Positions 7,393 through 64,000 of a stretch of 64,000 nt of DNA are shown piece by piece (the first letter of the stretch is position 1; each line of letters starts with the position of its first letter). The position numbers and the translations under genes were made by a program. Source of the stretch: Eledone cirrhosa (taxonomy: Eukaryota); the NCBI GenBank assembly GCA_964016885.1, contig OZ024741.1, forward strand, positions 159,588,001 through 159,652,000. Reading direction: 5' to 3'. The notes under the pieces are model-generated. The model saw nothing but the letters and a program-made list of their open reading frames with translations. It had not been told where the DNA came from and searched no databases.

Positions 7393-7472
7393 TGTAAGTA
7401 TACAAATATATATATTTATATATATATTTATATATAAAGAAGAAATTAAAAGATGATTAAAAAAGTTCAATA

Positions 7473-7542
7473 TATTTTATTATGCACATTTCGAAAACAA
7501 CATCATCCTGGGACAAAAATTGTGTTCTCATCAGATAAAATA
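7473..7542 (-). ncRNA. Type I hammerhead motif in the PLE pLTR
   Basis: tattttat CTGATGA gaac...gttttc GAAA tgtgca TA ataaaata, with an 8-bp helix I. Confidence 0.8.
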
Positions 7543-7880
7543 AGATAACATGATATGAGGCCTAAAAACACTTGTGAACAAGAACGTGTCCAGTCTACAT
7601 ATGACAAAAATATAAGAGAAGAGAAAAAAATAGGAAAAAATGAAGAAAAGGAAAGAAGAAGGAAAAAGGAAAAAGAAATAGAAGAGAGGAAAACAGAAAG
7701 AAAGAAGGAGGAGAGAGAAAGAGAATGAGAGAGAGAGACTTTTGATCTGGGAATGCTGTCAAAAATGAAAACAGCTGTAAATAACGGCTAAAAAAAAAAA
7801 TAAATAAATTGATGAGGTGTAAGTGCGAATATTACAAATATTAGATGCCTAGAATATAGAAACTGGGTATATTATTTTAT

Positions 7881-8060
7881 TTGGCAGTATCGGTAGAGGG
7901 TCGGACGCCATGCTTTCCAGCATAGTTACGTCCCTTTATGATCTGAGTTCAAATCCCGCCGAGGTTGACTTTGCCTTTCATCCTTACGGGGTCGATAAAA
8001 TAAAGTACCAGTAATGCACTGGATAATTGCTGGCCTTGTGCCTAAAGTAGAAACAATTAT
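7881..8060 (+). mobile_element. Main-family SINE nested in the PLE 3' UTR
   Basis: A and B boxes plus family body. ATTATTTTAT is duplicated at 7871-7880 and 8056-8065. Confidence 0.9.
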
Positions 8061-9939
8061 TTTATATTGAGTTTGAATACTAAAACTTGGATTAAGAAGT
8101 GTCAAAATGTATTAATAAAATTAAATAAAATTAAATTAAAAATAATTATAATAATTATAAAAAAAAGGTTTGTAAAATAAAATAAAATAAAATAAAATAA
8201 GATAGAATAGAATAAAAAAATAAAAATAAGAATAGTCTATCTATATGAAAATAAAAAATTACTATTGAAAATCTATATATGTGGGGTATATTATTTAATT
8301 ATTATTTTATATCAACAATTAAATAAAGGAAATTGCTAGAAAGGTTTATAAACGTAGAAAGACATATGACGTCATAGTTTGTATACAAAATCTACGAAGG
8401 TTTGAACAAAAATTTAAGGCAATAGAGGAAAAAAGGTGAAAGGCTTAAAAATGCAGAGAAAAGAGAATTAATGCATTGTAGGATATAATGAAATATGTGA
8501 GAAAAAATGTGTGAAAAGATATATGTGTAAAAAAATTAACCGTTATTTGTGGGATATGTTATAGGACATTAGCTGTATACTTTGTGAAAGATCTTAAAAT
8601 ATTTATGATTACAAAGTCCAAATAAGTCTGTACGTATATTTATTAAAGAGTTGAAATTCGAGATAATGGTAAATTTTTCAGCATGACATAAATTATAAAC
8701 CATAGATATGGAAGCAATGGAGTAAGGAAGAGCGTTGCAAATTTTACGCCAAGAAATTTCGTAATTAATGTTTTTGTCTTTTAAGGAAACAAATGGGTTC
8801 TGAGAGTGCGGTGCTGGTCCTTTTAAGTGGATATTTAAATGTAGAAGAATGGTTATAGTCTTGCTTTAAAAGAAGTAGAAGTAGAGCCAATGTTGGTATA
8901 GGTATTGGTAGTAGTTACCACTTTACATTCGTATACTAGGTTTTTATCGAGACAGAAATTACTAAGAGGACAATTAGTTCTAATAGGGCAGTTGCATTTA
9001 CGATTAAGATTATTAACAGAGTTATTTGCAAGTGGCCCAGGATTATTTGTATTAGGAACTGGAGTGGTGGAATTAGCTAAAGGAGGTGCTAAGGTTTCCT
9101 GATTTACATTACTATTTGAAGCATTCCTCAAAGTTAGGTTTGACGTCGTATTTGTATTTATGTTATTTTGCCTAGAGTTTACATTGACGTCGGGCCTTAC
9201 AGTGTTATTATTATGACTCTCATGGTTGAATGCATATGAGTTATGGTTTAATATTTTAGAATTATGTCTTGAGATAATTTTAGAAATGTTGGAAGTAGTG
9301 GAATATGAGAATTTAATGGTATGCTTATTAAAAATCTTGCTATATATATGTGAAGGGGGGAAGCTGTTATCTAAAGCCCTAAAAAATAATTTAGGGATAT
9401 TACTAATAAGTGAAAGAGAGAAGGGAGCGTTGTACCAAAGGATATTTTTATATCTAGGTCTCCTCCTTATGTTACTGGTATGATTATTACTAGCTACATT
9501 ACTATAAGTTCTGCCAAGATTAGTTTCCTTAGTGTATCTAATTTTGTCTGGATATCCAGCCCTAGATAACGCATTATGATAATAGTTGGCATTAGCATCG
9601 AAGATATGTTTATTAGAGGATAAATTAGAAATTCTTTTTTCAACACTTCTGAGTATAGCAGTTTTAACATTATTAGGGTAGTTTGATTTAAAGTTGACAT
9701 AATTTAGGTTCTCATTATCCTTATGGTATGGGTAATATAGGCCGGTATCTAGATTAAGGGATATATCAAGGGATATATATATATTGTTTTCTAAATGCGC
9801 ATAATAAAATATATGGAACTTTTTTAACCATCTTTTAATTTCTTCTTTATATATACTCCAGTTCTACCAACTGTTGAGTGCTACTTATCTGATATATGCA
9901 TAGTTTTATTGTTCTACAATATTACTCACCTCCTACATA

Positions 9940-10645: not shown

Positions 10646-10648
<3 letters not shown>

Positions 10649-10790
10649 CGAAGGAAATGTGGTAAGGAACCAAGTGGACCATAACGCACCAAAGTACTCA
10701 ATACTTAGGGTAGTAGAGTGGGTAATAGGAACGAGTAGGACCCCGACGAAACGGCTTGAGCTCAGCCGTCGGGGTCCTACTCGTTCCTAT
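10646..10790. mobile_element. Family X foldback insert, short copy
   Basis: Same sequence as 32053-32270, 62421-63755 and 63813-63938. Embedded in (TA)n. Confidence 0.85.
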
Positions 10791-26186: not shown

Positions 26187-26564
26187 TTATAATAACAGGG
26201 AATAATAATAGGGAATAATGAAATAAACTCTACATTCTTCTCTCTAGCGTTAACACCTTTAACCAACATTTTAAGCCAAACTAAAATTGAATACAGATGC
26301 TCAGAGAAGACAATCAACCGTCTTTTGCATATAGATGATTTCTCAAGTTGTAAGTTGAAGATGATAAAAACTAGAAACAACTGCTATGTTAGATAAAGAA
26401 ACAGAGATAAACGAATTTGATCAAACACAGACATTAAAATACTTATGAATTATTGAACTAGACAGTGTACAACAGACAAATAAAAGAAAAGGTTAGGAAG
26501 GAAGTTATAGACATAGTGGATTATGGATTAATACTTAAAAAGAAAGATTGATATCTCAAAAATC

Positions 26565-27676: not shown

Positions 27677-27847
27677 TGTAAATCAGGATGGATTCAGTTT
27701 GAAACTGGTAGACGCTTACTCAACAAAGTACTCGATACTGGGGTAGTAGAGTATTGTTATATTATATAGAGTCGGGTTCCTCAGTCTGGAACTAGCTGTT
27801 GAAACGGCAAGAGCTCAGCTGTCGGGTCCGGATTCTTTATAATATAT
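27677..27847. mobile_element. Diverged relative of family X foldback
   Basis: GAAACGGCAAGAGCTCAGCTGTCGGGTCC at 27801. Minus-strand bulged hairpin at 27730-27752. Short inverted arms. Confidence 0.7.
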
Positions 27848-32052: not shown

Positions 32053-32265
32053 TAACGAAGGAAATGTGGTAAGGAACCAGATGGACCATAACGCACCAAA
32101 GTACTCAATACTTAGGGTAGTAAAGTGGGTAATAGGAACAAGTAGGACCCGATGGCTGAGCTCAAGCCGTTTCGACGGCTAATTCTGGACTAAATAAAAT
32201 TTTTTATTTAGTCCAGAATTAGCCGTCGAAACGGCTTGAGCTCAGCCGTCGGGGTCCTACTTGTT

Positions 32266-32270
<5 letters not shown>
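32053..32270. mobile_element. Family X foldback insert
   Basis: Tail 32053-32131, arms 32132-32199 and 32202-32270, in (TA)n. Confidence 0.88.
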
Positions 32271-32320: not shown

Positions 32321-32484
32321 TTGCGAGGTTTTTTATATGAAATCGTGTGTCGAAACAAATATTGTTATACTTGGAGAGGGTCATATTTGTGTAATAATAT
32401 TGCCAGAATTAATAACAGTGAGTGTGTTCTGTTATTAATTCTGGTAATATTATTACACAAATATGACCCTCCCCAAGTATAACA

Positions 32485-34180: not shown

Positions 34181-34406
34181 CAAATTGTGATCAAAGATAT
34201 CCAAGCTATGACCATCCCTTCTTTTCGGGGTGACATGGGGGTTAGAACCACATTATCCAATGTGCTCGTATTTATGTATATCTAATGTTTGATGTGAGGG
34301 AGAATTGCTTGCCATTTCTAGCTTATCCAATAACCAGAGAGATGTTGCCACCGGGTTGTACTGAGGTATTTTGGTACGCAAACACCAGTCCATCCATCCA
34401 ACCTAC

Positions 34407-34525: not shown

Positions 34526-34912
34526 GATTCTTTTTTTCAAATACCACTTTGGAAGAAGAATCAGGATGGAGAGAGAGGTGCTGTACCCCAGCAAGTTTTA
34601 TGAAAGGTGGGTGAAAGTGGCGAGAATGGCCCGAGTGAATGGGCCTTCTCTCTATATCAGCCTGTAGGTTGAGGAAAAGGAGGAGGAGAGGAAAGGAGTA
34701 CAAGCTCTTCGTACTCCTGGAGATGAGGGTTGCACATTTTTTTCGGGGGTCTGTGTTACCCATATAAACTGTCTCCCTCTATTGGGGAAAATCGACTAAC
34801 TTTTAAATTCCATCTGTGATAACATTTTACACGTTTTTATTGTATGTAAACTTCCCCCTTTGTATTTGTCCCCTTCTTTTGTGCCCCTGTGGCTAATAAA
34901 GAAATATATCTA
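34526..34912 (+). mobile_element. Tx1 3' fragment in (TATC)n
   Basis: Near-identical to 28244-28625, including the 5' junction. Confidence 0.9.
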
Positions 34913-36628
34913 TCTCTCCTCCCTTCTGTATGTATTGACTCTCGAACCACTACTGCGGAAGTTGGAGTTGTTGCAGGGCATCCCTTTGGAACCGGGATTG
35001 CGGAAAGCGGTGTCGGCCTACGCCGATGACGTGACAGTAATGGTGTCGGCGGCCTCCGAAATCGGGGCGATCGGCACCTTACTGGAGGAGTACGAAAGGT
35101 TCACAGGGGCTAAGATGAACCGGGACAAGTCGATGGTTTGCAACTCGGCACGTGGAGGGGCAAACCGATGCCCTCCGATGGCGTCGTCGGACACTGGACG
35201 GAGGGCCCGGTGAAGTTGCTCGGGGTCTGGTTCGGACCAGACCTCCAGGTGGAGAAGAACTGGGGTGAAGTTACGAACAGAGTGTTTGCACTGACCCAGA
35301 AGTAGGCCAGTTGCAAACTATCCCTGAAAGGTCGGGCGGAGGTGGCGAACACATATATAGCGTCCGTCATCTACTACCGCCTGACCGTCGTGCCTTGCCC
35401 AAGGGAAACCCTCGCCAAGATGGAGCGCGCACTCTTCCAATTCCTTTGGAAGAAGCGAGCTCCTTTGGTGAGGAGATCCATCTGCTGTCAACACCCTTCG
35501 AAAGGAGGGCTGGGGCTAATGATACGTAAACACGCATTAAGGCTACGGCACCTCCACGTATTCCTCACCGGTCAACCGGTGTGGGCCCCGTCTGTGAGAC
35601 GAACCTTTCCCAGACTCGTCTCACTCACCGAGCTGCAATCCTGGGTCAAGCAAAGACCGAGAAAACTGGGCGCCTGGCACACTGAGTGTGCCCAGGCGCT
35701 CACGGCCCTCTGGCAGGCGGACCCGGTTATCAGTGGAGACTCCACCGCGACATTCTATAGAGGGCTGGTACGCAGCAGGTGCGACGACGCCCTCGGAGAA
35801 GCCCTAGACATGGAGGAAGACGAACTGGCCAGCCTGTTCGGTAGGACATTCAGCCCGGGACCTATGGACAACTTCCAGAAGTTCCTGGCCTGGCAGTGCT
35901 ACCGAGGGCTCTACCCGTTCGAGAAAAGCTCTACAGACATGGGCGCCCGGGTAGGGACCCCGCCAAAAAGATCTGTCCCAGATGCGTGTGCGACGAGGAA
36001 ACCGTTGCACACGCATTGGTACACTTCTCGGGCGTAGTCGATCTGTGAGGCTATGTCGAACGACTGCTATCACGGGTGGGACCGATCCGGTTGACAACCG
36101 AGGCCATTGTAACGATTAAGCCGCCTCCCCCCTTCAAAAATGAAGGAGAGGCGGTGTTTCTGTGCGTAATAGCCATGGTGAAAGAGGTTTATGGTGGGCG
36201 CCTCTGAAAGGACTCAGGTCAGGCACCTTTCTCTCTGGCCAACAACTGATCCGTTTCTTCCGATATCATTTCGGAAGAAGGATCATGATGGAGAGAGAGA
36301 TGCTCAACCCTAGTCCTTTTTATGAAAGGTGGGTGAAAGTGGCGAGAATGGCCCGTGTGAATGGGCTTTCTCTCTACATCAGCCTGTAGGTGGAAAAGAG
36401 GAAGGAAAGAGGGAGCACCCTCTCTCTGTGCTCCTGAGGAGAAGGGGTTGCACACTTTTTTCGGGGGTGTGTGCGACCCCTATTGAGGACTTTATTGTTA
36501 ATTTTATATTTGTTATTTGTTTTCTTTACTCGCCTTTTTGTGTAAACCCCCCCCCCCTTGTATTTGTCCCCTTCTTTTGGGCCCTAGTGGCAATAAATAG
36601 AAATCTATCTATCTATATATCTATCTAT
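34913..36628 (+). mobile_element. 5'-truncated Tx1 LINE, sister subfamily
   Basis: LSSLLYVLTLEPLLRKL..AYADDV and a C-terminal CPRC..ETVAHAL zinc motif, with stops and frameshifts. (TATC)n tail. Confidence 0.92.
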
Positions 36629-38804
36629 TTGCACTAAAGTGTTAGTAATAGATGTGTCACCACGGGGGAAAGAGGGTGGTAAGAATGTGTGTGCGATAGA
36701 GCAAAAGAATGAGTGGTTGTCGTCGTGGCAGCAGCAAAACCCGACTTTGGTCACGTTGTGGAAAGGGGTTAGTGTGGGTGTTTGCGAGATAGATAGATAG
36801 ATACGTAGATAGATAGATAGAGAGGAAGAGAGAACGAGCGATAGCTAGAGAGAGAGAGGGAGAGGGAGGGGTTGCGAAAGTGAGAGAGAAGGTGAGAGAG
36901 AGAGAGAGAGGGAGAGGGAGGGGTTGCGAAAGTGAGAGAGAAGGTGAGAGAGAGAGAGAGAGAAAGAGAGTAAAAAAAAGAGTGGCTGCTGCGGTGGTGG
37001 CAGTGATAGTGGTATCGAAATTGTTTTAAATCCGGAAGAGGCTATGTAGCCGGTCCTGGTAAAATAGACTCCTAGGCTATTTACCCAGTAAAAGTGTCAC
37101 ACACCATGCGTTGCGGCTCGAGTTAAGACAATTGTTAAAACAATTTGAAATCTTTTCCACGATCAATTGTTCAAAAACAAGTTAAAATCATTTAGTCATC
37201 ATCTTATAACTCTGCTTGTGTTTTTTCCATTTGTAACGTGCGTTGCGCTTTAGTTACATACACACATCTACTGAGTTCCATAGCTTAAGAATTTTAGCAG
37301 TCAAATATTTCGAAATTAAGAACTTTAGCAGAAAGTCAAATATTTTCGAAATTAAGAATTTTAGCAAAAAGACAGAGCCTGGATTAAAGATAGTAGTCAC
37401 TACCTGGGTTCTAAAGCACTATTTATTATTTAGTGGTAAAATAAGCTTCCGGGACCCCGGCTAGAGTTGCACCCCTTTAGGCTATACCGGTAAAATAAGC
37501 TTAAAAAGCATGTTTGTTTATTTTGCCGGGACCGGCATATTCCTTTAAATCCTACGCTGTACGAAAAATATGGTTTATTCTCGAATTATAAATGAGTAAA
37601 ATATTCCGTTTTGGGAGTTTAAGTCGTTAAATTTATTCGTAATTTATATGTAATTTATATATGTTTATTTGAAATAAACGTTAAGACAGAAGTTACATAA
37701 TCATATTTATTAATTATACTTATTTCTGTAACACCAACATGGAGCTGTTGTGCAATCCTTACAACAGTGACCTGTACCTGTGTGACGTCATCAGATGTTA
37801 ACACAATTATGTAGGTGAGTTGATATGTTGTTGACTAACACGAGCATGAAAGTCCGGACTTTCGCAAACATGGTGGCGTTAGCCAACAACATATTATAAT
37901 AACCGGATAGCTGTTTAATTGTTGATTATCAAAGCTCTTTCGTCACACATTCTGTGACCTCTTCGGAGACTCCTTTTGTGACGGTGTGTCACCTCTTTGC
38001 TGTATTTTACCCCATATATTTTTGTATTTGTTTTGCAAGATTTTTTATGTGAAAACGTATGTTGAAACAGATATTCTTATACTTTGGGAGGGTCATGCTG
38101 CCAATAAAAACACAGGCACCTTTCTATATTTTTCTCTTTGGCTAAGCCCTTGCGCACTCCATATTTGTGTAATTTGCCTAAAGGCATAACTCGTCTCTTC
38201 CTGTTTTGTTATGTCCCAGAGTGCACTGGAATGAACGGTATCGATCTTAATGAACTGAAACCGTAGTAATTTCCAGAGATTGACCGAGGAGATGGGACTG
38301 TCCGTCTTTCCGTAGTTTTTTCCATTGTCTTTGTCCTGTGCGGTCCTTATTTTGAATTTATATATATATACAAAAACAATAGGAGGAGTTATTTAAGAGA
38401 CGTTCGTCTAGTCGCATATTATCTCTTCTCTCCTGTTGTATTAGTCAATCTTTCTCTAAAACGATATGTCTCTGTTCCTCTTCATTACCTCACATCTCTG
38501 TTGTCGTCTTCTTTCTCTTTGTATTATTTCTTCTTGCTGTTCCTGTCCGATTCTTACTCTGTCTTTGTGCAGCCTTTGTCGAGCTGCCTGCAACCGTCTT
38601 TCCTGGCGTAGAAACAATAAATCCATTTTATTAAGGTGCTTCTTTGTACAAGTAATAAATGTATGTCATAAATTTCTTAATATAGATATGTTAGCCACAT
38701 GCATGAACTGGTAGGTTAAGGGTAAATGTATATTTGTATATATACCTTGCAACGTTATATACCTTTTTTCACATAGAAACCATAGTCCCAACATTCGTTA
38801 CAAT

Positions 38805-38940
<136 letters not shown>

Positions 38941-39032
38941 GTAGGAGGTGAGTTTTATTGTAGTACAATAAAGCAATGCAGATATCGGATAAGTAGCACT
39001 CTACAGTTTGTAGGACTGGAGTATAAATAATA

Positions 39033-41188
39033 TAAAAAAATCTTAAATTCAAGAGAAACCCTTACAGAGGACAAGAGCACGTTGTAAATCTCAAGAACAC
39101 GATTTCAAACCTAAATTCCTCAAAAAATGTTTTAGTCCACTCTGACAAAACAAATAATTTATATGGTATTTCTAAGGACAACTATAACAACCTTATCTTA
39201 AAGGAACTTAGGAAAAAATATCGCAAAACCAACCATGATAATTTAGAATCCATAAACTTTGAAGCTTCTGAGATTATGTCAAAACTTAGCATCGGAAAAA
39301 AGACCGAACCATTCCTCCCAAGAACTCCGAGGATAAATCTCAAGGATCACAAAAACAAATTTCGTACTGAACTACCTGTTAGACTAATCGCCCCCTCTAA
39401 ATCAGATCTGGGGGTTGTTAGCAAAGCCATCTTGGATAGAATTATCCCACAGGTTCGTTCTAATTGCTCTTCTTTGAACTTAAATTTATGGTTTGGTACT
39501 TCTGAAGTGATTGGCTGGTTCAACAAATTGGATAATAAAAACAAACTAAAATTTATTCAATTTGATATTGCCAGCTACTATTCTTCTTTTTCGCCCTCAC
39601 TTCTCAACAATGCTCTATCTTTCGCTTACAAATATTCAGACATCACCACAGATGAACTTCACATCATTCTCACCACACGTAAAACCATCCTAGAGTTCAA
39701 CAATGAATATTGGACCAGAGCTGATACCTCTAACAACTTTGACATCACAATGGGAGCATCCGATTCATCCCAATTGACAGATTTAATTGGTATCTTTATT
39801 TTGAACTCTTTGAATCGGAAAATTCCTCAACTTCGCGGTGGAATTTATCGTGACGATGGACTCTTTACTATCTTAAATTGCAACATAGTTAACCTTAATA
39901 TTATTAAGAACAATATACGTAATCTCTTTAACCAACATAACTTAAAAATTGAATTTGATAACAACATCAAACTAGCTAATTTCTTGGATGTATCTCTTAA
40001 TCTTGACACTGGTCTATATTACCCTTACCATAAAAACAATGAGAATCTAAATTATGTTAATTTTAAATCTAACCATCCCACTAATATTAAGAATGCTATA
40101 GTTAGTAATATTGGAAAAAGAATATCCAACCTATCATCTAATAAAAACATCTTTGATGCTAACGCCAATTACTATAATTACGCGCTTTCTAAAGCCGGTT
40201 ATTCTGATAAAATCAAATATAGTAAAGAAACAAATTCTAGAAGATCTTACAGTAGAATAATTAATCATGATCATTCCAATAACTTTAATAAAAGACCTAG
40301 ATACAAAAACATAATCTGGTATAATGCTCCTTTCTCCATCTCTATTAATAATAATATTCCTAAATTATTCTTTAGTGCCTTAAATAAATTCTTCCCTCCC
40401 TCACATATCTATAGTAAAATATTTAACAAACACACTATAAAATTTTCCTATTCGACCTCCTCCAACATCTCCAACATTATCTCTAAACACAACAATAAAA
40501 TACTAAATACTAAATCTCTTCCTTCCATCACTGAATATCATAATAATAGTAATAGTACTCCCGACGTCATTGTTAACTCTAGGCTAATTTCTGCAAACCC
40601 AAATACAACGTCAAACGCAACTTCGTTAAATGTTCTTAATCCCAATCTAAATCAAGAAACTATTATTCCTATCTTAAATAACTTCTCCAATCCAATTCCT
40701 TCTATAGATAACACTAGGTCACTTGTTAATAACACTGTTAATTTCTGTAATCGCAATTGTAATTGCCCTGTTAAAAATAAATGTCCTCTCAACAACCATT
40801 GTCTTGAAAAACAAACTTAATCTACGAATGTAAAGTTATAACTGACACCAATTCCTTTACCTATTTTGGCTCCACTTCCACCTCCTTTAAAGCTCGTCTT
40901 TATAATCACCATTCGTCTTTTAAATACCAACTTAAAAGAACCAACACGGCACTCTCAGAACTCATATGGTCCTTGAAAGACAAAAATATTAACTATAATA
41001 TCTCTTGGAGGAAGGTTTATTCTGCTTCTCCATACTTGAATGCTTCTTTATTCAAGACATGTAATCTCTGTTTATGTGAGAAATTTACCATTATATCTAA
41101 TTTAGATTCTATAATAAATAGACGCACTGACTTGTTTTCTCTCTGCTTGCATAAATTCCACAGAACATTCCATAAAGTATACAGCTAA
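39033..41188 (+). pseudogene. PLE RT plus GIY-YIG endonuclease ORF with one frameshift near 40813
   Basis: In-frame SDKTNNLY upstream of the called ATG, QFDIASYYSS, ITMGA, GIYRDDGL, NFLDV, linker CNCPVKNKCPLNNHC (CX1CX5CX5C), LIYECKV..YFGSTSTSFKARLYNH and CNLCLCEK. DKT and CX1CX5CX5C are Naiad hallmarks as I recall them. Confidence 0.9.
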
Positions 41189-42146
41189 TATCTAATACTT
41201 TACCAATTTAAAATCCTTTTCTCAAAGGCACATATATATATACATATATATTTCTTTAAAAATATACCCATCTTTCTACCTTATTTCAATGTTATTTATT
41301 ATACATTATATAATACTAGTTACTCATTCTATATCACTCCTATTTATCACTTCCCTTTCTTTCTTTTTTTTCCTTTTTTCTTTTAATTTCTAACCTCTAA
41401 TCTGTACCTTTTCTTCCTAGATACTTCTCAATTCTCATTATTTCTCACCACAATATATCCTTACCCTCTTAAATACTTTATAATATCACCTTGAAAAATC
41501 CTTCGTAAACATAAACATTTTTTTGACGTTAGATTATTCATCCTCAATTCATTATTTTTTCTCCCTTTCATGTTCATCTAACTTATACATATTACACATA
41601 TTCATCCATTCATCCACTCTTCTACTTCTTTTCACAATATATCCTTAATTACATTACTATTGTTATATTTTTATATTTTTTTAATAATACATATCAACAA
41701 TTTCTTTCCATCGCACATATTATTAAACCCTTAAATATTATTCTTAATACATATTAACAATTTCTTTTCATCGCACATATTATTAAACCCTTCAATATAC
41801 AAACCTTAATTTAACATTATTCTTAAATTTTTCTCTTCGTTAATTTTCAAATTCTTTTAATTTATATATTATTTTCCAACGGTTTTTAACCTCTTTATGT
41901 AAAACAATATATTTTTCTCAGTTATAAAAGCTATCTCTCTCTCTCTATCACCCATCTCTCCTCCTATTTCATCCTTCCTTATTATACTCCTCCCCCTCCA
42001 TTCTTTACTCTCATCTCCTCGTCTTTTTCATCCCCCCCCTCAATTTTTTTTCCTAATATCACACATCAATCTAAAACTACTTTTCATATGTTGATTTAAA
42101 ACTGCACTATTCACAAGTGTTTTTTAACCTTCATATCATGTCTCCC

Positions 42147-42217
42147 TATTTTATCTGACGAAAACGCAAATGTCATCGCATGATGATATTTGTTTTTGAA
42201 ATGCGCATAATAAAATA
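42147..42217 (+). ncRNA. Type I hammerhead ribozyme in the PLE pLTR
   Basis: tattttat CTGACGA aaacgcaaatgtcatc-gcat-gatgatatttgttttt GAAA tgcgca TA ataaaata. 8-bp helix I, long helix II, palindromic helix III. Confidence 0.85.
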
Positions 42218-42247
42218 CATGGAATTCTTTTAACCATCTTTTGATCT

Positions 42248-42367: not shown

Positions 42368-42411
<44 letters not shown>

Positions 42412-42460
42412 CGAAGGAAGTGTGGTAGGGAACCAGATGGACCATAACATATATATATTA

Positions 42461-43416
42461 TAGCTTAAAATAGAGTGAGAATAAGTAGAAAGCAAGAACG
42501 GAGGTGGGATGGGGGCAGTTTTCCTCATCAGTTGTCTACTGGGGGTCTCGGATATTTCCATGCTTTAAAGACAAGATATCTACCGCCCAGAGCGTTCAGT
42601 AACTGGGTAAGTTATTGGGAAAACGGAGGAGGGAAGGAAAACAGAAGGGAAAAGGGAAGAAAAGAGAAAACAGCGAAAAAACCCCAACAAACCGAGCAAT
42701 GTACGAGCAACTTAAGGTAAGAAAATCCAAGACCACATTGATAACAGAACTTAAGTTCAAGAGCGTGTGGGCGAACGAAAAGACACGTCTGACCCCAACG
42801 AGTTGTAAGTGAGAAAAGGACTACTATAGGGTCAGGCGAGGGAAACAATAAGGTGGCTAGAAGAGAGAAGATGAGTGAAAGTGAGAGGGTTAAAGGGAGA
42901 GGAAAAAAGTGGGGTAAGAGTAGACAGTAACGAAATAGGTAGGTAGAAGGAAGGAGAGAGAAGACTGGTCACCGCGAAACATGATAAAATATATGGAGAA
43001 TAGGATTGGCTGTGTGGTTGCTAGTTCAGGTAGCTTAAAATGGAGTGAGAATAATAAGAAAGCAAGAACGGGGGAAGTTTTCCTCATCAGTTGTCTACTG
43101 GGGGTCTTGGATATTTCCACGCTATTTAAAGACAAGATATCTTCCGCCCAGAGCGTTCAATAACTGGGTAAGTTATTGGGAAAACGGGGGAGGGAGGGAA
43201 GGAAAATAGAAGGCAAAAGGGAATTCGATGTTTTTTTCGCTGTTTTCTCTTTTCTTCCCCCTTCCCTTCTATTTTCCTTCCCTCCCTCCTCCGTTTTCCC
43301 AATAACTTACCCAGTTATTGAACGCTCTGGGCGGTAGATATCTTGTCTTTAAAGCGTGGGAATATCCGAGACCCCAGTAGACAACTGATGAGGAAAGCCC
43401 CCCCCATTCTTGCTTA
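42461..43416. repeat. Unclassified repeat with two direct copies and one inverted copy of an about 200-bp unit
   Basis: Direct copies at 42461-42685 and 43031-43222 (period 570), inverted copy at about 43230-43416. Preceded by a family X tail fragment at 42409-42448. Confidence 0.8.
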
Positions 43417-43423
43417 CTGTGGT

Positions 43424-43496: not shown

Positions 43497-46020
43497 TGAA
43501 ACCAAGCTCTAAGTTTTCGTCCAGGGCTTTTCTCAATACATAGTCGAGGCAGATGATAAAAATATATGGTGCAAGAGTATCCCCTTGGAGTACTCCTGCA
43601 ATGATGTCAAAGAAGTTGGTATCTCCATCAGGTGAGCGCACCATTGCGCGGGTGTTTTTATATAACATCATGATGGCATTTACTGTTTCCTTTGGCAAGC
43701 CGTGGCTAGAAGTATCTCTATCATCCTCCCACGATGGATGGAATCGAATGCTTTTAAAAAGTCAATAAACAGGAGAGTTGCTGGGAGGTTTTTGGCTTTT
43801 ACGCCTTCCAAGATACGCCGAATAGTAAGTATTTGCCCTGATGTTGATCTGTTGGTGCGGAAGCCATTTTGGTTTTTTCTCAGCAAGGGATCAATGACAG
43901 GTCTTATTCTGTCAAGCAACATGAGATTGTATATCTTTGCGGCAATTGCCATTAGTGTTATGCCACGGTAGTTTTTAGCCATTCCAAGATCGCCCTTTTT
44001 GGGAAACGGGAGTATACATCCCTCAGTCCATTTGTCTATGGGGTCTTGATTATAGACACCATTACACAACTCTAGTAGGATTGGATGAAATTCAGGTACC
44101 TTCCACAATTCAGCTGGGATCTCGTCGAGTTCACACGCTTTTCCGATACCAATACTGTAGTTCCTCTATAGTGAAAGGACCTTTCTGTATTTGGTGTTCC
44201 TCTGTAAAAACGGGTATTATTTCTTCTTCGATGATCTGTGGTGCTTTGCCAAGTAGGTTCTGAAAATGTTGTTGCCACAGTTTTAAACGTTCGTCTTGGC
44301 TGGAGGCTTTCAGTTTGGCTCTGTCACTACTTTTTCTACCACTAATTTCATTGACAGTTTTCCAGGCTTCAGCAGACCTCTTATTGCTGACAGTACTCGA
44401 GATATGATTGATCTTTCTCTGCATGTATTCGGCTGGCTCAATTTCATACTCACTTTTCAGTGCTGTACAAGCAGCATTGAAGTTACTAATGTTTTCTGGA
44501 TATCGTTGAGTGTCTTTCAATTCTGCAGCTTTTCGCAACTCTTTGCGCTTTTGGCGTATCCTCTCTGTTTCCCAGGGTTTTCGTTTTGTAACCTTGGGTT
44601 TTAAAGGGATGGTGTCGGCCGCTGACTCTTTGAATGCCATTTGAAAGTGGTTAAATGTAGAATTTGACGATTTTGTTGGCGCAGAGTCTTGTAGGGCAGC
44701 AAATCGGTTGCTCCGTTGGGTTACAAAGGTTTTGTAAGTCTCAGAATTGTTATTCAGAACTGCCCAGTTCTAAGGAGTAGCATTCGCAGATTTCTTTTTA
44801 TCCACTCGGAGACTTAATCGTATCTTGGCCGAGACAATGCGATGATCCGAGTCAACACTAACAAATGAGTCATATGCTCTGCAGTTTTTTGCGCTGTTCT
44901 TCCATTTTCGATTGATTATGATATAATACAGTTGTGTCTTGTCGCCATTTAGATATTTGTGTGTCCACCGCTGGCCTGGTCTTTTTTGGAATATGGCGTT
45001 CAGACATCGTACATTTTTTAAAGTAATCTTTTAGCATACAACCGTTTCTATTGGTTTGTGAGTGATATGAGAATTTGAATCCATCAAGCTGTCCTAGACG
45101 CGCGTTGAAGTCTCTGCCAATGATGAGAACATTATTTTTCGGGATTTGTCTAGTGAGTGATGTTAGTTCCATGTAAAACCTCTCTACTTCGGCCATGTCA
45201 CATACATTTGTTGGACTCACAAAGCGAAAGTGTATACGCCATGCAGTTCAGAAAATCACCGATGCTGACTATGCGGATGATTTAGCGGTCCTCGCTGACT
45301 ACCTTAAAGATGCAACATCACTACTTCACAGCATCGAATCAGTTGCAAAGGAAATCGGACTCTATGTCAACGCAGGCAAAACAGAATATATTTGCTTGAA
45401 CCAAGACTCCTCAGTTGGTATGCGAAGTCTAAACGGCGATATAATCAAGCAAGTTGACGACTTCAAATTCCTGGGTAGCTATATCGCCTCCACAGAACAT
45501 GATGTTAACATCAGACTGGGAAAAGCCTGGGGAGCATTGAATGCAATTTAAAAAATATAACCTGCCGGCCAAACTGAAAAGGAATTTCTTCAGAGCTGCT
45601 GTGGAATCTTTGCTTGTTTATGGCTCTATCACTTGGACGCTAACGTCGAAACTGGAGAAAAAGCTAGACGGGGCATACACACGTATTCTCCGTGCAGCTT
45701 TAAACGTATCTTGGAAGGAACACCCAACAAATAAGGATCTCTATGGCAATATACCACCTATCAGCAGGTCAATACGTGGACAGAGACTCAGATTTGCTGG
45801 CCAGTTGGCGCAGCAAGGAAGAGATAGCAGGTGATGTATTGTTATGGAGTTCATCTCATGGAGCAAGAAACGCTGGTCGTCCCAAGAAGACATATGCCAA
45901 GCAACTTGAGGACGATACTGGATGCAATGCGGAAGAACTGGCAAACGCTATGAGAGACAGAGATGGATGGAGGAAACGTGTCGTAGAGAGCCGAGCAAGC
46001 TCGACCTGATGATGATGATG

Positions 46021-49132: not shown

Positions 49133-49612
49133 GGCATACGTTAAGACGGGCGTTCCGGAAAGTGAAAGTAATTTCTGACAACATTGTGAATTTTTTTTTA
49201 TTTTTTTACAGTGAAAGTTATGATACACACGCAATTGTATGGATATCTTAATATATATATATATGTGTGGGTGTGTATATGTGTGTATATATGTGTGTAC
49301 ACTGTGAATTTTTTGTTTATTTACAACAGGTCTCTATAGTGATATGGTGTTAATTAGTATTGCGTGTGTGATTATTTTTTCTTTTTCTTTTTTTGTGTAT
49401 TGTGTGTACGGAAAATTTTTTTTTTAAATATATACATACAGACACACATATATATACACACATATACACACCCACACATATATATATATATTAAGAACTC
49501 CATACAATTGCGTGTGTATCGTAACTTTCACTGTAAAAAAAAACAAAAAACAAATTCACAGTGTTGTCAGAAATTACTTTCACTTTCCGGAACGCCCGTC
49601 TTAACGTATGTC
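49133..49612. mobile_element. Mutator-like (MULE) MITE
   Basis: About 165-bp TIRs starting GGCATACGTTAAGACGGG. Perfect 9-bp TSD ATTAACCAC at 49124-49132 and 49613-49621. Confidence 0.88.
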
Positions 49613-52225: not shown

Positions 52226-53430
52226 ATGAACGCTGCGTCCAACGATAATGGTGGTGGAGAGGCGGTAAGACTACAAAGATCGCAGTCAACAACGTCTTCT
52301 TCACTAGATACTATAGAGATGGAAAGACAAAATGAAAATAAAAAAACGAATTCATATCCAAACAACACAAATGACACCAAACAGTTCAATGACAACAAAA
52401 ATAACAGCAAAACCAATAATGATGATAAAAGCAACAATGATAACAACAACAAAGAAAAAAATAAAGACAACACCAATAACACCAGCATCAAAGACAACAA
52501 CAACACCAAGGAAAATACGGATGATACCAACATCGGTGACAACAAGCATAACAACAAGAATAACAACAATAATGACAACACCACCAATACGGATTCCACA
52601 AAGAAACCAAAAATTTCCTTTGCAGAGAAAGTTCAAAAGAAGGAAGAATTGATATATCTCGACATAACAAATGCTGAACAACTTTTAAAGGACGCTAGGA
52701 GATAAAAAATGGTGCTTTCAGCATCAATTCTCCGGTAGAAATTCGCAAGGAAACTGCTCTCAAAACGATGGTTTTTAGGACAGTTTCCAATTCTACCCGA
52801 AAACCAGTCCAATTGTCACAGAAAGAAATTGAACTGGTTTTCAAAAATTCAATGAATGATATTGCATTCATTCAAAGAAGCAAACTTTTTGAGAGTATTT
52901 CGGTACTCGTGAAGGATCAATTGACGGCCCAAAACTACTCTGTGTCGCCAATTGTATCCATCCTGTACACCTTTTTCCCTACATACATGGGAAAAAGGAC
53001 ACAAAAGATCAGAATCACGAGTGTCACACCAAAGGTGAACATATGGTGGATACTGTGCGGCTTCATCAATTTTGATGAAGACAGAATACTGTCAGTAGGC
53101 AAGTCCCCCAGAGATGTATTCAATGGGACTAGCATTGAAGTTCTGGTGCAAATGAGCCCAGAGCGAATAGCTATGATCCCACAGCGTGTACTCCTGGACG
53201 GACTCACCTACATAAACTTTTCGGTTGAGGGTAGGCGGCCTTCATGTTACCATTGCTTTAGCAGGGGTCACCTGAGTTCTTCCTGTCCTAAATTAATGAA
53301 CAAAAAAAAAGGCTCTTCTGCCGACACCCATCAAAACAACACAACCACCAACACCACCACCACAACAACAACACCAACACACAAAAATAACCACAACAAA
53401 CACAGTCCCATCCAACCCCATCTTCGATGA
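52226..53430 (+). pseudogene. Tx1 ORF1 (gag-like, CCHC knuckle), interrupted
   Basis: ISFAEKV motif and VEGRRPSCYHCFSRGHLSSSCP. Stop at about 52703. Confidence 0.82.
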
Positions 53431-56400
53431 CTTTGAGATCTACGCATCTCTCTGTCAACCGGGGGGTGGGGGCGGAGTTGCCGTTTTGCTTCGGAAACAC
53501 TTGCGCCTCGTAACACAGACGGTACATCTGGACCCGGAGGGTCGACTGGTGGTCCTAGACGTTGACGGTAGCGAAGGTGGAGCCTTCAGGCTGGTGGCCG
53601 CATATGCTCCATCCGGGCCACCGCGGCCAGACTTCTTCAAACGTCTAGAGACTTTTCTGGGAACGTCCCGCTCCTTGCTTTTAGTGGGGGACTGGAATGG
53701 AATCCTAGATGCACGTTGGGACTATGTGGGAGCATGTCCCGATAAAGGGGGGTGTAACTGCCTCAAACAGTTAATCGACCGATTTGACCTGGCCGATAGA
53801 TATCGACTAGATTTTCCGACTGCGCCACTGTAGACGTGGAGTAATCGCAGCGGAACATCTAGATCGTACCTAGATAGGGTTCTAGTTAGAAATAAGGATA
53901 GGGTCATGTTAAGCTGTCCACAAATGTTCATGGTTGCCTATTCAGATCACAAACTAGTGACCTGCATGGCCAACCTTGATAGAACCCATAGACAAGGACC
54001 CGGCTACTGGAAGCTGAACTTGTCGTTACCGACAAGCAAAGCCTACAGTAGACGGATTAGCACTTTAGTTAAACAGCACTTGACAGGGGCCATTGTCAAC
54101 AACAGATAGTGGTACTCTCTCAAGAGGGCAGTTAGATTAGACTCGATAGTTTTTAGTAAAGAATTAGCGTTAGATAGAAATAGAACCGAGAAGGAACTGG
54201 TAGATAAAGTAGAAGAGGCAATTAAAAGTGGCAACGTAGCCAGCGTGCTAGCAACGAGAACGGCCTTGGACCAGTTCTTCGACGCAAAGAACGAGGGCTG
54301 CGTTGTCAGAAGCAAAATACGTGCTCTGGGAAACGAGGGAGCCAAAGCTGTTAGCTGGGCCCGAGTGACGGAGGCAAAAAGTGGCAACAAGTCCACGATT
54401 CAGTCTTTGAAGGACCAAAACGGACGCATGATACGTGAGCCGAAGCAGATGTGTGCGGCTTTTCAGCGGCACTTTGCTCGGCTGTTCGGGGGGAGCGGCG
54501 CGCCGGGAGAGGCTATGGATTTCGGTCCATACCTCGACAGCCTACCGCGACTCTTGGACAGCGAGGCAAAGTTCTGCGAAAAGCCGATTTCAGCCACTGA
54601 GATAGGGGACGCGCTGAGCCAATGCGGCAAACGCAAATCTCCAGGTCTCGACGGTCTACCCTATGAATTTTACGTAGCAATGCCGGACTTATTCTCCGGT
54701 CTCCTGGAAGCGGTCTACTGCAACTGGCAACAGAACGGGAGAATTCCCAGTTCTGTAACCGGGGGCGTGGTCACACTAATCAGGAAGGACGAGAATAAGG
54801 GGGATGACATAGGCAACTTCCGGCCCATAACTCTGCTAAACACAGAGTTACAGATTTTGGCCAAGGTGTTGGCAAAGAGGCTGGCGCTTGTCGTCGAGAA
54901 CCTGGTGGGAGAAGCGCAGACATGCGCAATCCCGACCAGGTCCATACACGACAACCTCCACCTCATGCGATACATCATAGAGAGGGTAGGGTGTAAACCC
55001 GGCTTCGGTGGGGCCCTGATCAACTTGGATCAGTCTAAGGCTTTCGATAGGGTTGACCATCGTTACCTGGATGCGGTGCTCGAGGCAGCAGGTTTCGAAC
55101 CCGTGTTCAGGGGCTGGATTGCTGCAATGCACAACAGCAACATCTGCTCAAGGGTCAAGGTGAACGGCTATCTCTCGGAGCCGTTCCATATTACGCGATC
55201 CATTCGACAGGGATGCCCTCTCTCCTCCCTTCTGTACGTACTGACTCTCGAGCCACTACTGCGGAAGCTGGAGCTATTGCAGGGCATCCCTCTGGAACCG
55301 GGACTGCGAAAAGCGGCGTCGGCCTACGCCGACGACGTGCCAGTAATGGTGTCGAGCGCCTCGCAAATCGAGGAAGTCGGCACCTTACTGAAGGAATACG
55401 AAAGTCTCACAGGAGCGAAGCTGAACCGGGACAAGTCCATCGGTTTGCAACTCGGATCGTGGAGAAGCAGACCGATGCCTTCCGATGGCGTCGTCGAACG
55501 CTGGACGGAAGGACTGGTAAAGCTGCTCGGGGTCTGGTTTGGTCCGGACCTCCAGGTGGAGAAGAACTGGAACGAAGTGACGGCCAAGGTGTTTGCACAC
55601 ACCCAGAAGTGGGCCGAGTGCAAACTATCCTTGAAAGGTCGAGCGGAGGTGGCGAACACTTTTATAGCGTCCGCCATCTACTACCGCTTGACCGTCGTGC
55701 CTTGTCCAGCCAAAACGCTCGCCAAAATGGAACGCGCGCTCTTCCGATTCCTTTGGAAGAGGCGGGCTCCTTTGGTGAGAAGATCCATCTGCTGCCAACA
55801 CCCTTATAACGGAGGGCTGGGAATGCCGTGGTTGACGATGCGCAAACACGCGCTCAGGCTGCGGTATCTCTACGTATTCCTCACCGGACAACCGGTGTGG
55901 GCCCCGTTCGTGAGGCGAGCCTTCCCACGACTCGTCTCGCTGACCGAGCTGCAGTCCTGGGTCAAGCAAAGACCGAGGAAAATGGGCGACTGACACATCG
56001 AATGTGCTCAGGCACTCACAGCCCTCTGGCAGGCGGACACGGCGATCAGTGGAGACTCCACTTCGTCATTCTATAGAGGGTTGGTCCGCAGCAAGTGCGA
56101 CGACGTGCTCGATGAAACTCTAGGCGTAGAGGAAGATGAACTGGCCTGCCTGTTCGGTAGGACCTTCCGCCCGGGACCGATGGACAACTTCCAAAAGTCC
56201 CTGGCCTGGCAGTGCTACCGAGGAGCTCTACCAGTTCGAGACAAGCTCTACAGACATGGGCGCCCGGGCAGGGACCCTGCAAAAAAGATCTGTCCGAGGT
56301 GCGTGCGAGACGAAGAAACCGTCGCGCACGCATTCATACACTGCCCGGGCGTCACTGACTAGGTAGAACGACTATTGTCGCGGGTGGGACCAATCCAGTT

Positions 56401-59080: not shown

Positions 59081-59517
59081 TATATTAATAAGAGGAATTC
59101 CAACTTTGTCTGATTTACTCGTTTTATTTACAATCCTTTAAAATATATATAATATGGTATTATAATGAAATAGTATGATAGAATATTAAATTCTAAGTGT
59201 TAATTGAACAAGTACTTTCATGCTTTCGAAATCTTCAGGTTCATGATATGTGGTGACAGTCGAGTTTGCAATTTTCAACTGTCAACAGTTGAAAATTGCA
59301 AACTCGACTGTCACCACATATCATGAACCTGAAGATTTCGAAAGCATGAAAGTACTTGTTCAATTAACACTTAGAATTTAATATTCTATCATACTATTTC
59401 ATTATAATACCATATTATATATATTTTAAAGGATTGTAAATAAAACGAGTAAATCAGACAAAGTTGGAATTCCTCTTATTAATATAATCTTCTATACACA
59501 ATCATACACACCCGTGT
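59081..59517. mobile_element. Near-perfect palindromic insert with HHR motif in both arms
   Basis: Arms 59081-59282 and 59285-59486, 2-nt spacer, tail to 59517. HHR at 59324-59362 is tgaac CTGAAGA tttcgaaagcat GAAA gtac TT gttca. Confidence 0.82.
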
Positions 59518-59570: not shown

Positions 59571-61208
<1,638 letters not shown>

Positions 61209-61211
<3 letters not shown>

Positions 61212-61974
61212 AATTAGTATATCTAGTAACATATATATACACAGATGCATACTTATGTTAGCAAATATATAGGTTTTGTCTTAGTAACTATGTGGTTCAA
61301 TGCATGGGGTTGCAGAACAATAATATGGATTGATGACGAAAGGCTTCTCCGTGCTCTCTTCGGATAGTACGTTTAATCCCTTTCAGAAACTAATTAGTTG
61401 GGAGTGAAATTTAAGTAAGTAAGTTAATTTTATAATTTTCTTATTTTACGTCTCTCATATTATTGTTCTGCAACCCCATGCATTGAACCACATAGTTACT
61501 AAGACAAAACCTATATATTTGCTAACATAAGTATGCATCCGTGTATATATATGTTACTAGATATACTAATTCTTTATAATTATCTCCAAAATTATTTGTC
61601 GAGCAAAAATGGTCAAAACTGCTGCTATAGTAACAGTACGGCTGCTGTCTTACTAACAAACCACTATCCACTGATTGACCTCGATGTCACGTGATTGATT
61701 CTTTTGAATTTGCCACCGATGCAGTAGGCAGTGATTTTATCAATGGCTTGGCATTAGTCCTCACTTTGCTTTTTCCATCCACTGAATTATTTTTGTATAA
61801 GTTCCCTGTGTCCACGTATTGCCTGGAAACTTAGCTGAGAATAGACTTCCCTGATGACGAAAGGCTTCTCCGTGCTCTCTTCGGATAGTACGTTTAATCC
61901 CTTTCAGAAACTAATTAGTTGGGAGTGAAATTTAAGTAAGTAAGTTAATTTTATAATTTTCTTATTTTACGTCT

Positions 61975-61976
<2 letters not shown>
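61209..61976 (+). mobile_element. Non-coding retrozyme-like element with 521-nt unit and inverted 5' arm
   Basis: Direct repeat 61331-61455 / 61852-61976. Inverted arm 61209-61327 versus 61456-61574. (TA)n flanks. Confidence 0.85.
61845..61926 (+). ncRNA. Type I hammerhead ribozyme motif
   Basis: acttcc CTGATGA c-gaaagg...cctttc-a GAAA ctaattag TT gggagt. 6-bp helices I and II, 10-nt palindromic helix III. Confidence 0.8.
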
Positions 61977-62006
<30 letters not shown>

Positions 62007-62010
<4 letters not shown>

Positions 62011-62334
62011 GACGGCGTATATATGTGTTGGTATGTATATTTAATCTTGATAATTTGTATAATTTTGTATAATTTTGTACATAGATCTGTTGAATATGCA
62101 TACCAATTCTAACACATATATATCCTAGAAACGATCGTTAAATAATGAACTTTTTTTGTTTAATATAAGGAATTGTTTATTCATTATTTGTTTAATATTT
62201 TATCTTGACTCTGTATACCGTTTATCTTTCACCGAAAGTGATTTTTCATTACATCTCTTCTTTCCATGATATCCGGAATACATTGAGTTCTTCATACGGA
62301 TTGGACACTACCGTAAACTCTTGGTAGATTTATC

Positions 62335-62335
<1 letters not shown>
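62007..62335 (+). mobile_element. PLE-type terminal fragment with 5'-clipped long-helix-II HHR
   Basis: TGAAGA at 62007, long stem (tatatatgtgttgg/ctaacacatatata), GAAA cgatcg TT at 62128-62139. (TA)n flanks. Confidence 0.6.
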
Positions 62336-62420
<85 letters not shown>

Positions 62421-62423
<3 letters not shown>

Positions 62424-63275
62424 CGAAGGAAATGTGGTAAGGAACCAGGTGGACCATAACGCACCAAAGTACTCAATAGGGTAGTAGAGTGGGTAATAGG
62501 AACCAGTAAGACCCCGACGGCTGAGCTCAAGCCGTTTCGACGGCTAATTTTGGACTAAATGAAAATTTATCCTGGTATTTAAATAGCCGAGCTTCTCAAG
62601 AGGTAATTCCATATATGGTCAAAGTGATTGTCACAAGGATTGGTCACAAGTTAGTAGTAATTCTGTGATGGCAAATTAGTGGGGGAAGGGGTAGCTAAAC
62701 CTGCCAGTAGGAGAAAAAAGGGGAGGGGGTGGAGTAGACCCATTCATGCGTTGGTGGTGCCGGCTACAGCTGGGCGTGAGGTCAAAGAAGATACTAGGGA
62801 GGGGGAGGGGGAGGAAGTCGAAACGGTAAGTAGAACAATGAAGGGTAAAAATATACTGAGAGTGAAGCGAATAAATGTAAAGAAAAAAAAAATAAAATAA
62901 GCAATTTCTACGACCTAAGTCTCTCGCTATTGCTAGGCTAAATAAATAAATAAATAAATAAATGAATAAATAGATAAAGAAATAAAAAAATAATAAATAA
63001 ATAAACTAGGTGGGACGGAATAGGAAAGGACCCTTTTAAGAGGTATAAGTACGTATATCATACAGTGACGGGTCAACAAAGGGGGGCCAAAATACTAAAG
63101 AAACTACCACGAAATAATTAATAAAGGTTTCTACCCAGGGCACAAGGCCAGCAACCACCCAGTGCAGAAAAGTAAACTAGTACGAAATAATAATTCAGAG
63201 TCCCGAAAAAATATACTAATGCTAACTCTAAGGGTACCGCCACGCTACAAAAGTTCTTATACAAGCTACATGAAT

Positions 63276-63306
<31 letters not shown>

Positions 63307-63750
63307 TTTCTTTAGCCTAGCAATAGCGAGAGACTTAGGTCGTAGAAATTGCTTATTTTATTTTTTTTTCTTTACATTTATTCGCTTCACTCTCAGTATA
63401 TTTTTACCCTTCATTGTTCTACTTACCGTTTCGACTTCCCCCCCCTCCCCCTCCCTAGTATCTTCTTTGACCTCACGCCCAGCTATAGCCGGCACCACCA
63501 ACGCATGAATGGGTCTACTCCACCCCCTCCCCTTTTTCTCCTACTGGCAGGTTTAGCTACCCCTTCCCCCACTAATTTGCCATCACAGAATTACTACTAA
63601 CTTGTGACCAATCCTTGTGACAATCACTTTGACCATATATGGAATTACCTCTTGAGAAGCTCGGCTATTTAAATACCAAGATAAATTTTCATTTAGTCCA
63701 GAATTAGCCGTCGAAACGGCTTGAGCTCAGCCGTCGGGGTCTTACTGGTT

Positions 63751-63755
<5 letters not shown>
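62421..63755. mobile_element. Family X foldback element, long copy
   Basis: Tail 62421-62495, arms about 62496-62960 and 63290-63755, no ORF, in (TA)n. Confidence 0.9.
63647..63740 (+). ncRNA. Hammerhead motif with U3-A8 core (mirror copy 62511-62604 on minus)
   Basis: acctc TTGAGAA g-ct-cggcta...tagccg-t-c GAAA cggc-ttgagctca-gccg TC ggggt. Confidence 0.75.
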
Positions 63756-63812
<57 letters not shown>

Positions 63813-63815
<3 letters not shown>

Positions 63816-63938
63816 CGAAGGAAATGTGGTAGGGAACCAGGCGGACCATAACGCACCAAAGTACTCAATACTTAGGGTAGTAGAGTGGGTAATAGGAACG
63901 AGTAGGAGCTCAGCCGTCGGGGTCCTACTCGTTCCTAT
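63813..63938. mobile_element. Family X foldback insert, short copy
   Basis: Same tail and arm ends as the other family X copies. Confidence 0.85.
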
Positions 63939-64000
63939 ATATATACATATATATATTTATTAATACAATAACAGAGATAGCTTAACACTAAACTCCGACT

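Follow-up and report, generated by a model that had tools for sequence, protein, structure and literature searches.

Near the right-hand end of the window, as the whole stretch of 64,000 nucleotides analysed is called here, lies a motif with the layout of a type I hammerhead, in which three helices surround the core and the end of helix I is left open. Identified in the sequence and with a descriptor, it has the following parts:

63647..63740, plus strand: type I hammerhead motif with the core U3-U4-G5-A6-G7-A8-A9
63647-63651 with 63736-63740, plus strand: helix I, ACCUC paired with GGGGU, 5 bp including one U-G
63652-63658, plus strand: core UUGAGAA
63659 with 63712, plus strand: G10.1 paired with C11.1
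63662-63667 with 63705-63710, plus strand: helix II, CGGCUA paired with UAGCCG, enclosing a 37-nt loop
63713-63716, plus strand: GAAA
63716-63721 with 63729-63734, plus strand: helix III, ACGGCU paired with AGCCGU, 6 bp
63733-63735, plus strand: GUC site, with the predicted cut after C 63735
62604-62511, minus strand: inverted twin hammerhead, with U3 at 62599

All 18 pairs are standard, and the required core positions are present: U4, G5, A6, N7 and A9, then G12, A13 and A14, together with A15.1-U16.1, H17 and G10.1-C11.1. Positions 3 and 8 form a Watson-Crick pair, U3-A8 in place of C3-G8. An earlier note had described a hammerhead here with a UUGAGAA core, three helices and a GUC site, and every element lies where it was placed; the U3-A8 reading is supported, and the helices pair as given, with helix III one base pair longer (6 bp). 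Helix I can be extended by six pairs beyond a 6-nt bulge, as far as the base at the end of the arm. A descriptor allowing C or U at position 3 and G or A at position 8, composed with the motif already in view, gave 2 matches in the window and none in any of 40 block-shuffled windows. Rfam returned no gathering-level match over the 64-kb window, and at E up to 10 no hammerhead family but only chance matches driven by (TA)n. This miss is not caused by the core, because the canonical CUGANGA hammerheads at 42155, 61851 and 7534 were missed too.

The twin hammerheads are the two arms of a single insertion, 63314-63752 and 62499-62939 being 98.6% identical over 441 nt. The core is present in both arms, as the earlier note had stressed, but this is no evidence of conservation, since the arms are one event and nearly identical. 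The insertion belongs to a repeat family, here called family X, which is represented in the window together with a diverged relative (family Z):

63275..63752, plus strand: tail-less arm, ending in (TA)n 17 nt past the predicted cut
62499..62978, minus strand: tail-bearing inverted arm, carrying the twin hammerhead
62423..62498, minus strand: 76-nt tail, on one arm only, ending in (TA)n
62979..63274: non-coding spacer between the arms; 47 nt of it are 81% similar to the end of a SINE-like repeat that is abundant in the window
62339..62422: left (TA)n flank
63753..63814: right (TA)n flank
63815..63935: short family-X insertion in the same (TA)n tract, a tail and an inverted helix III remnant without the core
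32055..32267: family-X insertion whose arms meet inside loop 2, without the core
10648..10787: family-X insertion whose arms meet inside helix III, without the core
42411..42448, minus strand: family-X tail-end fragment in (TA)n
27700..27830: family Z, a tail hairpin and a helix III remnant without the core

All five family-X insertions adjoin (TA)n, a target also typical of Naiads and not specific to the Hydra clade. In four of the five, one arm carries the tail and is joined to a second, inverted arm that lacks it, with two shared end points in (TA)n that lie, in the 62423-63752 copy, 93 and 17 nt beyond the predicted cut; the hammerhead sits in a terminal repeat near the 3' end, at these distances from the two ends. 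The junctions at 10648 and 63815 show a 2-nt microhomology and unequal arms, which would suggest two separately primed cDNAs rather than a simple fold-back. Over about 80 nt, four of the family-X tails are separated by 1-4 substitutions. The several close copies claimed for the window do exist for the 3' end (10648, 32055, 42411 and 63815) but not for the core, which only one of the five insertions possesses. No ORF was found in the 850 nt upstream of the tail, nor in any copy in the window, these copies being too short to exclude one. A head-to-tail tandem array of the family-X unit, by which a retrozyme would be recognized, is also absent from the window, where the insertions are dispersed and inverted.

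The surrounding DNA is rich in other repeats. A decayed SINE-like piece at 63106-63166, within the family-X spacer, may be donor flank carried along. A local insertion hot spot extends over 2.8 kb, from 61210 to 63960, where neighbouring (TA)n tracts contain at least 3 separate Penelope-like insertions. LINE-type reverse transcriptase (RT) ORFs are found at 53300-55993 (plus), 43680-44165 (minus) and 34800-35213 (plus) by the Pfam families RVT_1 and Exo_endo_phos, and one such ORF has a piece of an AP endonuclease upstream. A young SINE-like repeat of about 200 nt, with up to 97% identity, forms tandem arrays at 24822-26190, 33530-34189 and 21451-21800 and has many dispersed copies. Unclassified long inverted repeats lie at 43057-43418, 42509-43407, 37823-37894, 32363-32484, 49135-49610 and 6234-7372; the flank of the one at 37823-37894 ends like a family-Y tail.

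Of 20 sequencing runs listed, among which was no RNA run, the reads of four, X1 and X18 (organism A), X5 (organism B) and X6 (organism C), were aligned to 62422-62938 at 80% likeness. On the strand used, a change of A8 to G appears as T>C at 62594 and a change of U3 to C as A>G at 62599. The T>C counts of X1 (1), X5 (2) and X6 (2) are wholly explained by positions 62550 and 62652, and A8-to-G is below 4% in these runs; X18, with a depth at the core of about 520 reads, has one T>C place outside the variants listed. Position 3 shows no change among the 40 variants listed of 112 in the four runs. A change at 62601, present in 473 of 495 X18 reads, turns the U-G wobble of helix I in the window copy into C-G, and in an X6 contig spanning the core all nine differences fall outside it. 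A related subfamily, represented by single contigs of X5 and of X6, has a core ending ACAA-G, with position 7 changed from G to C. A6, A8, A9, G10.1 and CGGCUA are unchanged in these contigs, which is what the U3-A8 register would lead one to expect; the 30 letters displayed do not reach position 3. Among sequences alignable across the core, U3-A8 is therefore the subfamily norm, a statement limited to that subfamily, since the alignment with an abundant subfamily that has a different loop 2 breaks off at 62546, short of the core. The core is covered 21 times less deeply than helix III in X1 and 11 times less in X5. UUGAGAA as a family consensus is supported for the core-aligning subfamily, with A8 kept and C3 absent from the variants listed. 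The constancy of the core is weak evidence of selection, because it contains no CpG.

The same reads bear on the ends and age of the insertions. The tail measures 80 nt in copies with a 4-nt insertion, seen in 6066 of 11364 X18 reads, and 3527 loose ends of (TA)n fall at the tail-less end point in that run. Read depth is near zero beyond 62850. Depth does not fall at the cut site, and the inserted RNA would therefore have been mostly uncut. X18 read ends at 62549, 62564, 62605-62608 and 62674 lie on AATT, probably RAD restriction sites, and depth steps in this run were disregarded. A contig joint of X1, one of 14 listed, coincides with the base that immediately follows the predicted cut (62515); with a depth of 12.3 it was rejected as too thin. 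The commonest identity band of the aligned records is 90-95% in both X1 and X18; with tails only 1-4 substitutions apart, the recent activity suggested earlier is plausible but modest. Metagenome contigs, scanned twice for an exact pattern, contained no matching locus.

A coding relative with the same anatomy is present in the window as family Y:

38939-42245, plus strand: family Y, a near-full Penelope-like element with an RT ORF at 39036-40820 and a frameshifted GIY-YIG-type ORF at 40808-41188
42155, plus strand: family-Y hammerhead with the canonical core CUGACGA
7427..9938, minus strand: second family-Y-like copy, with a canonical CUGAUGA hammerhead at 7534

The two copies are 73% identical over the coding 3' part and have inverted tails of about 90 nt and minimal hammerheads. 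The RT ORF has 328 homologues, one with a GIY-YIG domain and one from Argonauta hians; the latter, together with a SINE likeness, makes an octopod host probable. Family Y bears the motifs DKT, CxCX5C, CxxC and CxH, which are given for the Hydra clade in PMC8557442. About 970 nt separate its stop codon from its hammerhead. The family-Y ORFs matched no Pfam family and gave only a chance match in NCBIfam; scans for related loci with the family-Y protein yielded 0 confirmed loci in genome and viral contigs. When the X and Y tails are aligned by sequence alone the score is not significant, since 56 and 954 shuffles out of 1000 do as well; tblastn and blastn between X and Y recovered only a SINE-like piece and simple repeats.

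Other hammerhead-bearing insertions occur in the window. The (TA)n-flanked inverted insertion at 20206-20588 has a canonical minimal CUGAUGA hammerhead at about 20400 and an 80-nt tail that ends like that of family Y. At 59723-61127, also (TA)n-flanked, are inverted arms of 116 nt, a decayed hammerhead and a long tail with a hairpin. In the palindromic insertion at 692-1130 both arms carry a canonical hammerhead (near 998) and the tail hairpin is at 1059; another CUGAUGA...GAAA motif is found near 580, just upstream. The (TA)n-flanked insertion at 61210-61976 contains a canonical CUGAUGA hammerhead at 61851 with a long helix II and a palindromic helix III, and its junction at 61329 makes a chance UUGAUGA look-alike. 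Finally, a 406-nt palindrome in (TA)n at 59081-59486, 99.5% perfect, has a CUGAAGA motif resembling a minimal hammerhead and a tail without the hairpin, and perhaps belongs to another clade.

The tails of families X and Y both open with a bulged hairpin of the form RCTC-stem-loop-stem-NN-GAGY-RCT, which is common to six repeat families in the window:

62465..62495, minus strand: tail hairpin of the main family-X copy, damaged by a 4-nt deletion
63857-63891 and 10690-10724: intact family-X tail hairpins
32097-32131: further family-X tail hairpin
27724-27757: family-Z tail hairpin
38992-39027 and 9850-9885: family-Y tail hairpins
20501-20531, 1059-1088 and 61000-61037: tail hairpins in other families

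When X and Z are aligned with Y, 32 of 32 cells pair and 2 of 8 pairs are changed on both sides; the alignment comprises four sequences from two lineages, hence one event per pair, and its score was reached by 10 of 500 shuffles. A descriptor of the hairpin, composed after the motif had been seen, gave 6 strict matches against 0.025 per shuffled window. The held-out matches at 20506 and 61000 both lie in the tails of other (TA)n-flanked inverted insertions, and a third at 1059 stands beside a hammerhead-bearing palindrome. A covariance model of X, Z, Y1 and Y2 gave 23 matches with E up to 10. Nine of them fall below E 0.05, all in such tails: the four training sequences, three other X copies, and two from held-out families, 20501 (E 0.0008) and 1059 (E 0.023), these E-values being rough. 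The model missed the site at 61000 (family W), and the hairpin was not seen in the hammerhead-bearing insertions 59081-59486 and 61210-61976.

Among the six Hydra consensi in file S7 of PMC8557442, the hairpin can be recognized by eye in four. It follows the hammerhead in Hydra-2_Amil (GCTC-TAC..GTA-TT-GAGC-ACT), Hydra-2_Ajap and, with one mismatch, Hydra-1_Crog, and stands at the 5' start of Hydra-1_Ajap; the consensi of Hydra-1_Amil and Hydra-1_Obim stop before the tail. The words 'hairpin', 'stem-loop' and 'bulge' are absent from the main text of that paper, and no such hairpin was found in the literature from 2021; Arkhipova's papers of 2006-2017, Lunse 2017, Repbase notes and figure images may bear on it and on the U3-A8 core alike. 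The tail hairpin with its compensatory changes is what is new here, and it is apparently undescribed in the literature covered. It would tie family X to a Hydra-like clade, a link that rests on anatomy and one short hairpin, because the family-X copies have no ORF and the X-Y tail alignment is not significant. As to function, it is a candidate start-site signal or enzyme-binding signal that the reverse transcriptase might recognize.

Folding of the hammerhead itself was examined with ViennaRNA, and two features of the motif are predicted to compete with or modify the active structure:

63706..63721, plus strand: competing hairpin AGCCGU-CGAA-ACGGCU, which would sequester G12-A15.1
63716..63734, plus strand: helix III with a near-palindromic loop, predicted self-duplex -30.7 vs hairpin -7.1 kcal/mol

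The competing hairpin is possible because AGCCGUC is present twice in the motif, and it would hide GAAA; its pair probability is 0.32-0.87 across fragments. The minimum-energy fold differed from the hammerhead in every monomer fragment folded. With tertiary contacts left out, the ensemble is 1.6-3.2 kcal/mol lower in energy than the hammerhead fold, whose computed monomer probability is 0.6-7%, or 0.2-0.6% when G10.1-C11.1 is forced. Fold z-scores are near zero in all four fragments (0.02 to 0.59). The earlier statement that all three helices form is consequently sound as to pairing potential, but neither the z-scores nor the monomer minimum-energy fold supports it. For dimers of the 106-nt fragment the minimum-energy fold was a double hammerhead. 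In 119-nt fragments the intermolecular helix III had a probability of 0.68-0.88, but the intramolecular helix I went down to 0.0, and the dimer gain was equalled by 4 and 8 of 100 shuffles. Since the competing hairpin would mask GAAA in the monomer, cleavage by the family-X hammerhead is probably weak or conditional, and a switch that is off in the monomer and on in the dimer is a prediction of modest strength.

These results are best explained by a type I U3-A8 hammerhead in the terminal repeat of a likely Hydra-clade Penelope-like retrotransposon, which probably cuts its precursor RNA weakly or conditionally. Family X is termed Hydra-like rather than a demonstrated member of that clade, as it has UUGAGAA against CUGANGA in 26 of 26 published cases. 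The element's enzyme would nick (TA)n, and reverse transcription would begin at two fixed sites on the RNA, which lie downstream of the GUC site by 17 and by about 93-97 nt. Both resulting cDNAs could then join through a 2-nt microhomology, giving an inverted pair with the tail on one side; most cDNAs would halt inside the folded hammerhead. The RNA used for insertion appears to be uncut, because insertions run through the GUC site; cleavage would not be part of the insertion step and would act on a tandem precursor RNA. A lone copy is predicted to fold mostly into the inactive hairpin; the active fold would be favoured if the helix III palindromes of two units in a tandem precursor paired with each other, or if the element's protein bound. 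The two arms of the 62423-63752 insertion lie on opposite strands and so cannot provide this pairing for each other. Because the tertiary 3-8 pair is preserved by U3-A8, catalysis would be expected to survive (PMC3088659).

Three other explanations have to be considered. Family X may be a non-autonomous derivative, retrozyme- or SINE-like, which retains the terminal repeat of a Penelope element together with the hammerhead and the tail hairpin, and which relies for its mobility on a Hydra-like enzyme supplied in trans, for instance by family Y. The lack of coding sequence in the 850 nt upstream of the tail and in every family-X copy, the loss of read depth beyond 62850 and the tail hairpin common to X and Y are in keeping with this, and animal retrozymes have been argued to derive from Penelope repeats (bioRxiv 10.64898/2026.07.22.740005). 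However, the unit forms no head-to-tail tandem array, heavy 5' truncation is normal for Penelope-like elements (PMC8557442), and with the 970 nt or so between stop codon and hammerhead in family Y an ORF would lie beyond this copy; the derivative is accordingly considered unlikely. The motif might also be a catalytically dead relic, in which CUUGAGAAG is perhaps a slipped CUGAAGAAG (C3-G8 kept, G5 and A6 lost) or which is locked off by the competing hairpin, carried along passively because of its position between the truncation points and the start sites of reverse transcription. An extra base before G10.1 is usual in published Penelope hammerheads (CUGANGAH-G, PMC4209133) and makes the slipped register equal in length. 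The disfavoured monomer fold and the insertions that cross the GUC site agree with a relic, as does the anole element, whose insertion in vitro is unaffected by hammerhead mutants (PMC11167929). Yet the G-to-C change of X5 and X6, known from 2 contigs only, would strike the invariant G8 in the slipped register and the free position 7 under U3-A8; the gap to the active fold is the 1.6-3.2 kcal/mol computed without tertiary contacts, and U3-A8 hammerheads are reported active in vitro (PMC3088659). A dead relic is thus improbable.

The third possibility, that palindromes in a foldback or miniature DNA-transposon-like repeat have fallen into this order by chance, would agree with the absence of an Rfam hammerhead match even at E up to 10, with fold z-scores near zero and with an element that is itself an inverted repeat. 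Against it stand the 0 matches in 40 shuffled windows, the asymmetric tail with fixed ends, and the occurrence of the same anatomy both in family Y, which encodes an RT, and in families whose hammerheads are canonical. The anatomy largely refutes this explanation, which is very hard to credit.

For the retrotransposon reading a broader picture can be drawn tentatively, as a possibility rather than an expectation: in Hydra elements a conserved, undescribed bulged hairpin between the two start sites may be the enzyme's cis signal, maintained in hosts as different as corals, sea cucumbers, copepods and cephalopods; family X may combine it with an active U3-A8 hammerhead that a decoy holds off in the monomer and that a dimer or a protein turns on. 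If the tail hairpin is real and functional, it would provide a short RNA signal for the choice of two start sites and would allow ORF-less stubs to be assigned to a clade. The U3-A8 core per se adds little, because it is already in print for Penelope-type hammerheads (PMC4209133); family X makes a small addition, an example that is Hydra-like, probably from a cephalopod, and has a long helix III. The earlier point that CUGANGA descriptors would miss UUGAGAA is borne out, and family X shows that they undercount Penelope-type hammerheads. The earlier note makes no mention of the element class, the tail or the competing hairpin.

Natural U3-A8 variants of the core are recorded in several hammerheads and cited as active in vitro by Perreault et al. 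2011 (PMC3088659). They show the same 3-8 covariation in other hosts and contexts, whereas in family X it is the fixed state of a retroelement subfamily. Cervera and De la Pena 2014 (PMC4209133) reported about 1,300 U3-A8 minimal hammerheads from Schistosoma mansoni, located in the pLTRs of its Cercyon Penelope-like elements, and describe 'dual min-HHRs ~100-700 bp apart on opposite strands'. With both reports in print, the novelty implied earlier for a natural U3-A8 core falls away. Like the Cercyon motifs, that of family X is of type I, lies in a Penelope-like terminal repeat, has U3-A8, occurs as an opposite-strand pair and has a palindromic helix III region suited to dimers; unlike them, it is not minimal, with a helix III of 6 bp and a 7-nt loop, has no extra base between A9 and G10.1, and combines a loop 2 of 37 nt with a predicted competing hairpin.

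An inverted copy with a tail of 30-40 bp is described for Penelope-like elements in PMC8557442 (Craig et al. 2021), against 76-80 nt in family X. The Hydra clade of that paper, including Hydra-1_Obim, shares with family X the (TA)n target, a hammerhead near the 3' end, an inverted 5' copy and a tail. In its Hydra hammerhead table, however, 26 of 26 rows have CUGANGA, which the descriptor used may demand, and a helix III of 3-4 bp, whereas family X has UUGAGAA and 6 bp; four family-X motifs were not found in its supplement. In the Poseidon element PAc of Anolis, two internal start sites explain the inverted copy and the tail (Frangieh et al. 2024, PMC11167929). The PAc hammerhead, from another clade, is active only with protein and has the canonical C3-G8. 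Its stem-loop, AC-rich and within the ORF, is the nearest published counterpart of the tail hairpin, a likeness by description only. As proposed for family X, PAc has two internal start sites that set the tail, an AT-rich target, an uncut RNA template and a stem-loop in the start region (PMC11167929).
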